A stretch of 64,000 nt of DNA from Escherichia coli. GTDB lineage: Bacteria; Pseudomonadota; Gammaproteobacteria; Enterobacterales; Enterobacteriaceae. The translations under genes and the position numbers were made by a program. Positions 19,606 through 64,000 of the stretch are shown one piece after another. Under the pieces are notes generated by a model that worked only from the letters and a program-made list of their open reading frames with translations, ran no database searches and was not told the origin of the DNA. Location: the NCBI RefSeq assembly GCF_016026235.1, contig NZ_CP065613.1, one strand, 5' to 3'. Position 1 is the first letter of the stretch. The number at the start of each line of letters is the position of its first letter.

Positions 19606-21354
19606 TCACCCCTTGTGAAGTAACTCCATAAATGCCTCATATCCTGTTAACCCGGCAATAACCTCTGCCGGATGCTGACACAATATGCTTGCCAGATAGC
19701 TAAATATTTTTAGCTCATGACGCGCATCGGCGGCGGCGCAGGCGATCAAGACATGGTTAATGACTTCGTTATTCACCTCAACTGATTGGGCGAGGGTAAT
19801 AAAAAATCCACGAAAACGTCGCTCCTGTTCGCTCCAGCAATGTGGGATGGCGAGGCGATTAACAATCAGGTTTTCACCTTCTCCTTCGCGGGCGATGATC
19901 CGTTGCGCTTCATCGGCGGTAATATGGTGTTGTGCGACTAATTGCGCACAAATTTGCCGGGTAATATGTTGCCAGCTTTCACCGCGTACATTCGAATAAT
20001 GAAAACTTCCGGGGGCAGAGAAAAAACGCTCCGGTTGCTGGCGAATAAATGCCGTCGCCAGAAAATGTTTTATTTGTTCGATACCGGCAGCCGTAATGAT
20101 ATTTTTTACGGTGATGCAATTATTTACCGCGTCATCCAGTAAATAATGGCTGTTGTTAATGATCAATAACGGCTCAATCTCTTCGCGAATGGCAACAAGC
20201 TCGCTTAAGCTACGGGCAATAATCACCCGACAATGTAAAACATCGCGCTCAATGGCGAGCTGATTAATGGTGGCAATCGCGTTCTGGTCCGAGAGCAAAA
20301 TGATCGGCTGGCGTTCGTTTTGATGCCGTTCCAGCGCACAGGCAAAATACAAACCGATCAGATCGCTATCGAAAAGGGGAATATCGAGCTGTTCACGCAG
20401 TAGCGTAATAAAGTGCAGACTCATATCAAAGGCCGCAGGCCAGGCGGCTTTCAGGTTATTCATGCTGCTTTGGCGGTGCTCAGCAATCCACACTGGTGCG
20501 GCAAGGCAACGTAATAAATGCCCGGTAATATTCTCAACCAGCTGCGTATCAATAATATTCAATGACGCGATGCCCGGCACCCTTTGCAGCAACCCCTGCA
20601 CATTATCGGCAGAAATTACCTGTGCTTGCTGATGCTGTTTCTCTATCAAACCCGTCAGGGTTCTTACAGCATTATCACCAAGAAACAGGCCGCTCTGTTC
20701 AACGATTTGTTTTATCTCGTTACCGGGATATTGCGGCCATGTGTCAGTAAGCTGATTACGCAGGGCGTAAATCGCCAGAATCAGGCTGGAGAGATAATCA
20801 CCCTGCATCAGCGGCCAGCGGTGTTGGTTGTCGCAGACCGTGGATAATTGCTGAAGGTTGTCTCGTGTTACGCCCGCCAGCGGTATTAAAAACGGATCTT
20901 TGCGTAGCAAGTTCGCCAGCAAGATAACGCGCTTCTCTTCTGTCTCATCAATGAAATGGCCCAAACCGGGGCGACTGGCCAGGCAGCAAGTACGTTCATA
21001 ACGCTGTTTCAGGCGGGGCAGACGCTCTGCTACCCACGTTTCTGGCAAATTAAGCGCCGAGGCGAGTTGCGCACGGGGAGTGAAAGTATTCAGTAATAAC
21101 AGCGCCAGCAGCCGATCGTCGTTATCGTGCTTTTGCAGCAACTGAAAAAAACTGCGGCGCTCGAAGATTTCCAGCTGATAGCCCGCACTGCCACTGGCAG
21201 AGATACGAGCTTTGCCGTTAAGGGTAAAGTTGAGATAGTCAATATCACGCAGGATGGTCCTGCCTGAAACGCCAGTCTGTTGCGCCAGCTCGCCAGGCGT
21301 GCGCGGCTGTTGCTCCAGCAGATCGACAATCTTTAACTGGCGTTCGTTTAGCAT
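19606..21354 (-). CDS. frvR: frv operon transcriptional regulator
   Basis: 582-aa ORF with N-terminal HTH; order frvR-frvX-frvB-frvA. Confidence 0.85.
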   Translation of the reverse strand: MLNERQLKIVDLLEQQPRTPGELAQQTGVSGRTILRDIDYLNFTLNGKARISASGSAGYQLEIFERRSFFQLLQKHDNDDRLLALLLLNTFTPRAQLASALNLPETWVAERLPRLKQRYERTCCLASRPGLGHFIDETEEKRVILLANLLRKDPFLIPLAGVTRDNLQQLSTVCDNQHRWPLMQGDYLSSLILAIYALRNQLTDTWPQYPGNEIKQIVEQSGLFLGDNAVRTLTGLIEKQHQQAQVISADNVQGLLQRVPGIASLNIIDTQLVENITGHLLRCLAAPVWIAEHRQSSMNNLKAAWPAAFDMSLHFITLLREQLDIPLFDSDLIGLYFACALERHQNERQPIILLSDQNAIATINQLAIERDVLHCRVIIARSLSELVAIREEIEPLLIINNSHYLLDDAVNNCITVKNIITAAGIEQIKHFLATAFIRQQPERFFSAPGSFHYSNVRGESWQHITRQICAQLVAQHHITADEAQRIIAREGEGENLIVNRLAIPHCWSEQERRFRGFFITLAQSVEVNNEVINHVLIACAAADARHELKIFSYLASILCQHPAEVIAGLTGYEAFMELLHKG

Positions 21355-61745: not shown

Positions 61746-62354
61746 TCACCACGAAAACAGCGGCCATTCTTTGGCGACAGTGGTGAGTTGTGGCGCATCG
61801 AAAACGGCTTGTGGTGAGACCACCGTTTCCTCAAGCGGGATATTTTTGCCGTAGCGTTCTTTGAGCTTTGCCTGAACCAGCGGGTTGCTGAGATCGAACT
61901 CTTTCAACTTCTGCTGCTCGCCCACGCGCATTCCCAGCGCGTTCTGGTAAACCTTCCACACCACTTCCGAACAGTACTGGCGATCGTCGCTCCATGAGAA
62001 GCTGAAATCATACGGTTTACCGAGATAACGTTTTGTCGTTTGCGCCAGTTTTTGCTGTTGTTCAACACTCAGTCCGCCTTCAACGCGGCGAACGACGTAT
62101 TTGCCCTTTTCACCATGGGCGATCCACTGCTTGAGCGGGGTGTATTTCACCGGGCCGACCGCTTCAAAAACGTAGGGCTTTTTGTTGCGTATCACCAGCA
62201 TACCGGTGTGGCTGTAATCGGAATGGGTCGCCAGTTGGATCGCTTTACTTTGCGATGAGCGAGAGATTTGAAAGATGATGTCGCCGGTTTGCGGCTGCCA
62301 GGCAAAGGCAGGTACAGAAACCAGCAGGCTGAGGATCAGCAGCCTGTTTTTCAT
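61746..62354 (-). CDS. yiiX: secreted protein of unknown function
   Basis: 202-aa ORF with signal peptide. Confidence 0.8.
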   Translation of the reverse strand: MKNRLLILSLLVSVPAFAWQPQTGDIIFQISRSSQSKAIQLATHSDYSHTGMLVIRNKKPYVFEAVGPVKYTPLKQWIAHGEKGKYVVRRVEGGLSVEQQQKLAQTTKRYLGKPYDFSFSWSDDRQYCSEVVWKVYQNALGMRVGEQQKLKEFDLSNPLVQAKLKERYGKNIPLEETVVSPQAVFDAPQLTTVAKEWPLFSW

Positions 62355-62409
62355 AGTTAAACGTCCATGTATAAAAAGCGGTGGGTCGCAGACAACGTGC
62401 TCGTTGTTT

Positions 62410-62510
62410 ATGCCGGATGCGGCGTGAACGCCTTATCCGGCCTACAAGTTCGTGCAAATTCAATAAATTGCAATATGACGTAGGCCTGATAAGCGTAGCG
62501 CATCAGGCGA
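62410..62510. repeat. REP/BIME elements
   Basis: gccggatgcggcgtgaacgccttatccggcctac ... taggcctgataagcgtagcgcatcaggc. Confidence 0.8.
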
Positions 62511-62537
62511 TTCCACTCCGCGCCGCTCATTTCCGCT

Positions 62538-62855
62538 TTAGTATTCCCACGTCTCCGGGTTAATCCCCATCTCACGCATGATCTCTTTTGCCGCTTCCGG
62601 GATTTCGTCGCTGCGCTCTTTACGCAGATCGGCATCATCCGGCAAAGGTTGCCCGGTAAAGGCATGCAGAAACGCTTCGCACAGCAGCTCGCTGTTGGTA
62701 GCGTGACGCAGGTTGTTCACCTGACGACGCGTGCGTTCATCGGTGAGGATTTTTAACACCTTAAGAGGAATGGAAACCGTAATCTTTTTGACTTGTTCAC
62801 TCTTCTTGCCGTGCTCAGCGTATGGGCTGATATATTCGCCGCTCCATTCAGCCAT
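62538..62855 (-). CDS. metJ: methionine repressor (ribbon-helix-helix)
   Basis: ORF track opens at 62993; start at [18 protein letters not shown] (105 aa). Confidence 0.95.
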
Positions 62856-63043
62856 GAGATACTTAATCCTCTTCGTCAATAAATTGAGATCAGACCACAC
62901 AATTAATGTAGGTACTGACCGTAAACCCGCATAGTTTACCGTACAGGCGTTACCGTGACATCGTGTAATGCACCTGTCGGCGTGATAATGCATATAATTT
63001 TAACGGCTATTTGGGATTTGCTCAATCTATACGCAAAGAAGTT

Positions 63044-63070
63044 TAGATGTCCAGATGTATTGACGTCCAT
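63044..63070. promoter_or_regulatory. tandem MetJ boxes in the metB promoter
   Basis: tAGATGTCCAGATGTATTGACGTCcat: tandem 8-bp units related to AGACGTCT. Confidence 0.7.
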
Positions 63071-63131
63071 TAACACAATGTTTACTCTGGTGCCTGACAT
63101 TTCACCGACAAAGCCCAGGGAACTTCATCAC

Positions 63132-64000
63132 ATGACGCGTAAACAGGCCACCATCGCAGTGCGTAGCGGGTTAAATGACGACGAACAGTATGGTTGCGTT
63201 GTCCCACCGATCCATCTTTCCAGCACCTATAACTTTACCGGATTTAATGAACCGCGCGCGCATGATTACTCGCGTCGCGGCAACCCAACGCGCGATGTGG
63301 TTCAGCGTGCGCTGGCAGAACTGGAAGGCGGTGCTGGTGCAGTACTTACTAATACCGGCATGTCCGCGATTCACCTGGTAACGACCGTCTTTTTGAAACC
63401 TGGCGATCTGCTGGTTGCGCCGCACGACTGCTACGGCGGTAGCTATCGCCTGTTCGACAGTCTGGCGAAACGCGGTTGCTATCGCGTGTTGTTTGTTGAT
63501 CAAGGCGATGAACAGGCATTACGGGCAGCGCTGGCAGAAAAACCCAAACTGGTATTGGTAGAAAGCCCAAGTAATCCATTGTTACGCGTCGTGGATATTG
63601 CGAAAATCTGCCATCTGGCAAGGGAAGTCGGGGCGGTGAGCGTGGTGGATAACACCTTCTTAAGCCCGGCATTACAAAATCCGCTGGCATTAGGTGCCGA
63701 TCTGGTGTTGCATTCATGCACGAAATATCTGAACGGTCACTCTGACGTGGTGGCTGGCGTGGTGATTGCTAAAGAACCGGACGTTGTCACTGAACTTGCC
63801 TGGTGGGCAAACAATATTGGCGTGACGGGCGGCGCGTTTGACAGCTATCTGCTGCTACGCGGGTTGCGAACGCTGGTGCCGCGTATGGAGCTGGCGCAGC
63901 GCAACGCGCAGGCGATTGTGAAATATCTGCAAACCCAGCCGTTGGTGAAAAAACTGTATCACCCGTCGCTGCCGGAAAATCAGGGGCATGAAATTGCCGC
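63132..64000 (+). CDS. metB: cystathionine gamma-synthase, 3' end cut by window edge
   Basis: Open frame from ATG 63132 (MTRKQATIAVRSGLNDDEQYG) to the window end; absent from ORF track because no stop is reached. Confidence 0.9.
   Translation, partial: MTRKQATIAVRSGLNDDEQYGCVVPPIHLSSTYNFTGFNEPRAHDYSRRGNPTRDVVQRALAELEGGAGAVLTNTGMSAIHLVTTVFLKPGDLLVAPHDCYGGSYRLFDSLAKRGCYRVLFVDQGDEQALRAALAEKPKLVLVESPSNPLLRVVDIAKICHLAREVGAVSVVDNTFLSPALQNPLALGADLVLHSCTKYLNGHSDVVAGVVIAKEPDVVTELAWWANNIGVTGGAFDSYLLLRGLRTLVPRMELAQRNAQAIVKYLQTQPLVKKLYHPSLPENQGHEIA

Follow-up and report, generated by a model that had tools for sequence, protein, structure and literature searches.

Between the divergent genes metJ and metB, does this stretch of Escherichia coli DNA carry a genuine operator for the repressor MetJ and, if so, how far does it extend and which of the two genes does it serve? 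An earlier note had placed tandem MetJ boxes at 63044-63070 and ascribed to them the repression of metB. Throughout, coordinates refer to the window, the whole 64,000-nucleotide stretch of DNA that was analyzed. The answer reached here is that 63037-63068 is almost certainly a shared metJ/metBL operator, composed of four head-to-tail met boxes on which an array of MetJ would block promoters.

The metJ-metB spacer and its met boxes

The operator lies between two genes, one on either strand, that are readily recognized by their protein profiles:

62538-62855, minus strand: metJ; NF003622 profile 222.7 bits, cut-off 110, full 105 aa
63132-64000, plus strand, ending at the window edge: metB (cystathionine gamma-synthase), first gene of metBL; TIGR02080

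MetJ is encoded intact beside the operator, as the NF003622 match over all 105 aa attests, and its translation contains KKITVSIP, the DNA-reading ribbon (PMC3413123). For MetB, the first 289 aa score 527 bits with TIGR02080 against a cut-off of 504.55. RefSeq annotates metJ and metB at matching positions, in agreement with the profile matches, and the placement between divergent metJ and metB given in the earlier note stands. The divergent spacer is 276 bp long, and the array leaves gaps of 63 bp to the metB start and 181 bp to that of metJ. K-12 MG1655 shares this gene order, yiiX-metJ / metB-metL; relative to K-12, the spacer differs at four positions, 62890, 62902, 62905, and 62910, all proximal to metJ and far from the boxes. 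From 62911 up to the start of metB, boxes included, no difference from K-12 occurs. However, because the RefSeq K-12 annotation holds no binding-site feature at the metJ-metB spacer, annotation alone could not decide the identity of the operator.

The four departures from K-12 cluster in the metJ 5′ leader. By megablast, 5,425 of the 5,426 complete genomes of E. coli contain the surrounding 1.6-kb region, with metJ and metB annotated in it, and the spacer is at least 99% identical in only 14 of the 5,425, with strain 90-3040 reaching 100%. Between a yiiX-like ORF (61746-62354) and metJ, repetitive extragenic DNA occupies 62400-62537, reading gccggatgcggcg...cgccttatccggcctac, then gcctgataagcgtagcgcatcaggc. 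The 1.6-kb query, which includes this repeat, matched a median of at least 40 places per E. coli genome, and the metJ-metB spacer alone matched one. The repeat is presumably a REP/BIME element downstream of metJ.

The operator itself is built from four contiguous, in-phase units, each of which equals the met-box consensus AGACGTCT at 6 of 8 positions. They are given here without a strand, and conservation denotes identity across 47 Enterobacterales spacers:

63037-63044: met box 1, AGAAGTTT; 6.78 bits; 88% conserved; part of the published four-box K-12 site
63045-63052: met box 2, AGATGTCC; 8.96 bits; 96% conserved
63053-63060: met box 3, AGATGTAT; 8.57 bits; 97% conserved
63061-63068: met box 4, TGACGTCC; 6.87 bits; 90% conserved

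The consensus is read by the ribbon of the ribbon-helix-helix dimer (PMC3413123). In its context in the window, the operator runs ...aaAGAAGTTT AGATGTCC AGATGTAT TGACGTCC attaac..., and box 4 ends in T in most relatives (TGACGTCT). The three units quoted in the earlier note are boxes 2 to 4, and they are, as it described them, contiguous 8-bp units related to the consensus, spanning 63045-63068. Its interval had the right core, began one nucleotide too far to the left, and ended two too far to the right; its three boxes are real, and a fourth, AGAAGTTT, was missed.

Scoring relied on the MetJ information weight matrix of Augustus & Spicer (2011), which derives from 832 half-boxes (PMC3228920, Table 3). 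In that scheme, a box scores at least a quarter of the consensus score (3.15 bits), and a site comprises at least two adjacent boxes whose total is at least the consensus score of 12.58 bits. Each of the four units exceeds the box threshold. A matrix scan and a comparison with the met boxes of K-12 had both been suggested as checks: the scan returned a four-box total of 31.18 bits, about 2.5 times the site threshold, and the 32-mer of the window is letter-for-letter equal to the published metB/metJ site. The metJ/BL boxes are themselves among the known E. coli metboxes on which the matrix was trained (PMC3228920). The gene whose promoter region contains the array belongs to the methionine regulon, and MetJ is encoded in this genome. 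Tandem Repeats Finder called nothing in 62950-63140 at a minimum score of 30, a result that does not speak against the boxes, since four imperfect 8-bp copies fall below the sensitivity of the tool.

Promoter-like elements and a proposed mechanism

Four promoter-like elements can be assigned to the spacer, one facing metB and three facing metJ:

63060-63088, plus strand: candidate metB (metBL) promoter, -35 TTGACG (63060-63065), 17-bp spacer, -10 TACTCT (63083-63088); by eye and conservation
63024-63053, minus strand: candidate metJ promoter, -35 TGGACA (63053-63048), 18-bp spacer, -10 TAGATT (63029-63024); consensus scan, 9/12
62997-63025, minus strand: metJ promoter-like site TTGAGC-17-TAAAAT; consensus scan
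62925-62944, minus strand: PmetJ3 -10 region, of the metJ promoter nearest the start codon; a CRISPRi protospacer maps here

Across the 47 Enterobacterales spacers, the -35 of the candidate metB promoter is about 100% conserved, its -10 89%, and the spacer between them 55%. The sigma-70 consensus scan did not call this promoter on the plus strand owing to its weak -10, TACTCT, which matches TATAAT at 3 of 6 positions. TTGACG lies in boxes 3/4, and on the other strand TGGACA lies inside boxes 2/3; TGGACA-18-TAGATT may represent one of two repressible metJ promoters. A published list of RpoD promoters gives the hexamer pair TTGAGC/TAAAAT for the metJ/metB spacer (Shimada et al. 2014, PMC3946193). 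Closest to the gene, the PmetJ3 -10 element is described as overlapped by the CRISPRi protospacer (PMC5240198); about 95 bp separate this region from the boxes, and PmetJ3 would be the natural candidate for a non-repressible metJ promoter. Its distance from the boxes fits one constitutive metJ promoter among three (PMC3228920). A literature search for metBp and metJp found no promoter mapping data, and the promoters named above are predicted from consensus matches and conservation.

Two blocks of the spacer outside the boxes, 63018-63036 (TTGCTCAATCTATACGCAAA) and 62994-63011 (ATATAATTTTAACGGCTATTT), are about 99% conserved among the 47 Enterobacterales spacers, as highly as the boxes. Both coincide with predicted metJ promoter hexamers, and the conservation extends past the hexamers.

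How might MetJ act on this arrangement? According to published work, MetJ binds as a homodimer, one per 8-bp box, and does not repress with fewer than two adjacent boxes (PMC3228920). At high S-adenosylmethionine, a MetJ dimer would occupy each of the four boxes via its beta-ribbon, with neighboring dimers binding cooperatively. The resulting array would cover the candidate metB -35 TTGACG and, on the opposite strand, the candidate upstream metJ -35 TGGACA. Because it sits on both -35 hexamers, RNA polymerase would be excluded from both promoters. The metBL genes would be strongly repressed and metJ only partly autoregulated, since the downstream metJ promoter, about 95 bp away, would escape the array. 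Two back-to-back promoters thus seem to have their -35 regions buried under the four-dimer array, with the third promoter left free. Both occlusion as the mechanism and the choice of the true promoter hexamers are our reading of how boxes and hexamers are arranged.

Published observations on this operator describe metJ as sharing the spacer and the boxes with metB, and trace its weak repression to one constitutive promoter of three; an ONPG reporter assay showed about two-fold repression of metJ, and gel shifts are reported for E. coli operators (PMC3228920). Since both genes share the spacer and the boxes, the operator would serve metJ autoregulation as well as metB repression (PMC3228920). 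The repression of metB by MetJ, put forward in the earlier note, gains support from the matrix and from identity to K-12, and is best amended to include the repressor gene itself.

A longer operator must also be weighed, in which a fifth degenerate box is bound cooperatively, as reported for metF (five boxes). A candidate is at hand in ATACGCAA (63029-63036), an octamer with about 99% conservation that shares 4 of 8 positions with the consensus, and Pantoea stewartii (L035) bears a five-box array, extended on the metB side. However, a fifth box was rejected on score on either side of the four: at -0.88 bits for ATACGCAA and -14.46 bits for ATTAACAC, neither reaches the 3.15 bits required of a box. 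In addition, the published analysis counts four boxes (PMC3228920), and the conservation of 63024-63036 is equally well explained by the predicted metJ -10 TAGATT. We therefore regard such an extension as unlikely. More doubtful still is the idea that the 63018-63036 block is more than a metJ promoter element, be it a fifth cooperative degenerate box or a site at which a second regulator tunes metJ autoregulation.

Conservation and background of the array

Within the species, the exact 32-mer of the four-box operator occurs in no fewer than 5,080 of the 5,426 complete genomes, and at least 32 more carry it with one mismatch; these counts are lower bounds, because the 28-base word of megablast misses variants with central changes. 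Among three E. coli spacers taken from the most divergent ones (about 94% identity), a single box substitution was seen, AGATGTAT to AGATGTGT in one strain, and changes pile up on both flanks of the boxes.

For the comparison across species, genome contigs were scanned with a degenerate DNA pattern for an 11-aa MetJ peptide, so that loci were collected independently of the boxes. The scan yielded 120 loci, 118 of which encode MetJ, and in 98 of them metB lies divergent within 1.5 kb. Every one of these divergent spacers (98/98) carries a passing met-box array, with at least three boxes in 93 and at least four in 82. Per kb, passing sites number 4.05 in the spacers versus 0.044 in the 895 kb of flanking sequence, and even those in the flanks are mostly genuine: every metF start contained in the loci (34 of 34) has one of them in the 300 bp ahead of it. 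The remaining flanking sites belong for the most part to Shewanella-type loci, leaving about six weak sites of 13-14 bits. Within the Enterobacterales, a MAFFT alignment of the 47 distinct spacers, in which identity was measured to the window, delineates a footprint. Identity is 0.93 in the boxes versus 0.44 in the metJ-proximal 135 bp and 0.43 in the metB leader; in the 14 bp after box 4 it is 0.55.

Several loci depart from the single shared array. Shewanella-type loci (L005, L077, L121, L032, L018, L081, and similar ones) have a second met-box array besides the best array of the spacer. By coordinates, the second array of L005, the one locus in which it was placed, lies about 180 bp away from the match to the metJ pattern. 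Two distinct operators thus seem to be present in the L005 spacer, where the Enterobacterales have one four-box operator shared by both genes. In Rodentibacter, Haemophilus, Pasteurella, and Aggregatibacter-like loci (L006, L024, L037, L040, L050, L054, L068, and others), metJ occurs without a divergent metB, and the 400 bp upstream of metJ has either no met-box array or a weak two-box one. These loci agree with published work in which the MetJ regulon is reduced in Pasteurellales. A MetJ fragment 98% identical to that of E. coli was found on a 263-bp contig of Methylobacterium organophilum NBRC 15689 (L023, NZ_BPQV01000048.1). Published comparative studies place MetJ only in gammaproteobacterial orders, and the fragment most likely reflects enterobacterial contamination of an alphaproteobacterial assembly.

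Conservation by itself admits another interpretation, namely that the block is retained only as the back-to-back -35 elements of metB and metJ, while MetJ acts elsewhere or indirectly. TTGACG and, on the minus strand, TGGACA both lie inside the block, the promoter-like blocks that adjoin the boxes show the same degree of conservation, and the conservation of the boxes could partly reflect the overlapping hexamers. However, two hexamers cannot account for 32 conserved bp with an 8-bp period, and box 1, which overlaps neither hexamer, is 88% conserved all the same. Vibrio, Shewanella, and Aeromonas spacers differ in length and sequence yet keep high-scoring met-box arrays of their own sequence and position, arrays of this kind stand at all 34 metF promoters among the scanned loci, and the literature counts the metJ/BL boxes as known E. 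coli metboxes that served to train the matrix (PMC3228920). A purely promoter-based origin of the conserved block is hence very improbable, and a MetJ operator overlapping the promoter hexamers remains the preferred reading.

Against the background of the window, the operator stands well apart. In 500 dinucleotide-preserving shuffles of the 64-kb window, the best site totaled 21.09 bits; none of the 500 reached 24.4 bits, the score of the three boxes of the earlier note alone, and hence none reached 31.18. For the simple pattern AGAYRTNNAGAYRT, 0.06 occurrences are expected in the window and one is present, at 63045. The sole other passing site in the 64 kb is AGATAGCTAAATATTT (19694-19709), which consists of two boxes and scores 12.8 bits against the threshold of 12.58. 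It falls inside a 582-aa ORF (19606-21354, minus strand), and passing sites arise by chance at a rate of 0.66 per shuffled window; it was accordingly set aside as a chance match and is probably without meaning. That the operator, too, might be a chance product of AT-rich promoter sequence, bound by no repressor, can be dismissed as next to impossible: lone boxes are indeed common (70 window octamers of at least 6.78 bits, versus about 77 in shuffles) and the unrelated site at 19694-19709 barely passes, but the four in-phase boxes far exceed the shuffle maximum (n=500), passing arrays recur in all 98 divergent metJ-metB spacers of several orders, and the array of the window equals the published K-12 site, which together exclude it.

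Comparison with known MetJ operators

The array of the window is the already known E. coli metJ/metBL operator. Its K-12 counterpart, listed for b3938/b3939 (PMC3228920, Table S1), is the identical 32-mer agaagtttagatgtccagatgtattgacgtcc, with four boxes and 31.2 bits. The table gives its distance to the metB start as 63 bp and, for the reverse complement, the distance to the metJ start as 181 bp, both as in the window, so that no difference separates the two operators. What the present analysis contributes is a correction of the coordinates and the addition of a fourth box, together with the observation that the published matrix cleanly separates the site from the background of the window. 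Its significance is limited to correct annotation, and no open question is moved forward. Through this operator, methionine and S-adenosylmethionine levels are coupled both to metBL transcription and to the amount of repressor, and it is a textbook case of a ribbon-helix-helix protein acting cooperatively on tandem sites.

Among E. coli operators, those of metF, metA, metE/metR, metC, metK, metNIQ, and mmuP likewise consist of tandem 8-bp AGACGTCT-like boxes near a promoter, with 2 to 4 boxes per site (PMC3228920, Table S1). At 31.2 bits, the metJ/metB site is the highest among the K-12 rows listed, above mmuP (27.89), metA (27.16), metF (24.95), and metK (14.97). What also sets it apart from the other E. 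coli MetJ sites is that it is shared by a divergent gene pair that includes the repressor gene. Beyond the MetJ regulon, the operators of Arc, Mnt, CopG, and ParG resemble those of MetJ in their short repeated subsites, which are read by beta-ribbon dimers with cooperative neighbors (PMC3413123). As described in the literature, MetJ differs from these proteins in its S-adenosylmethionine corepressor, in the head-to-tail arrangement of its 8-bp palindromic units, and in the variable length of its arrays.
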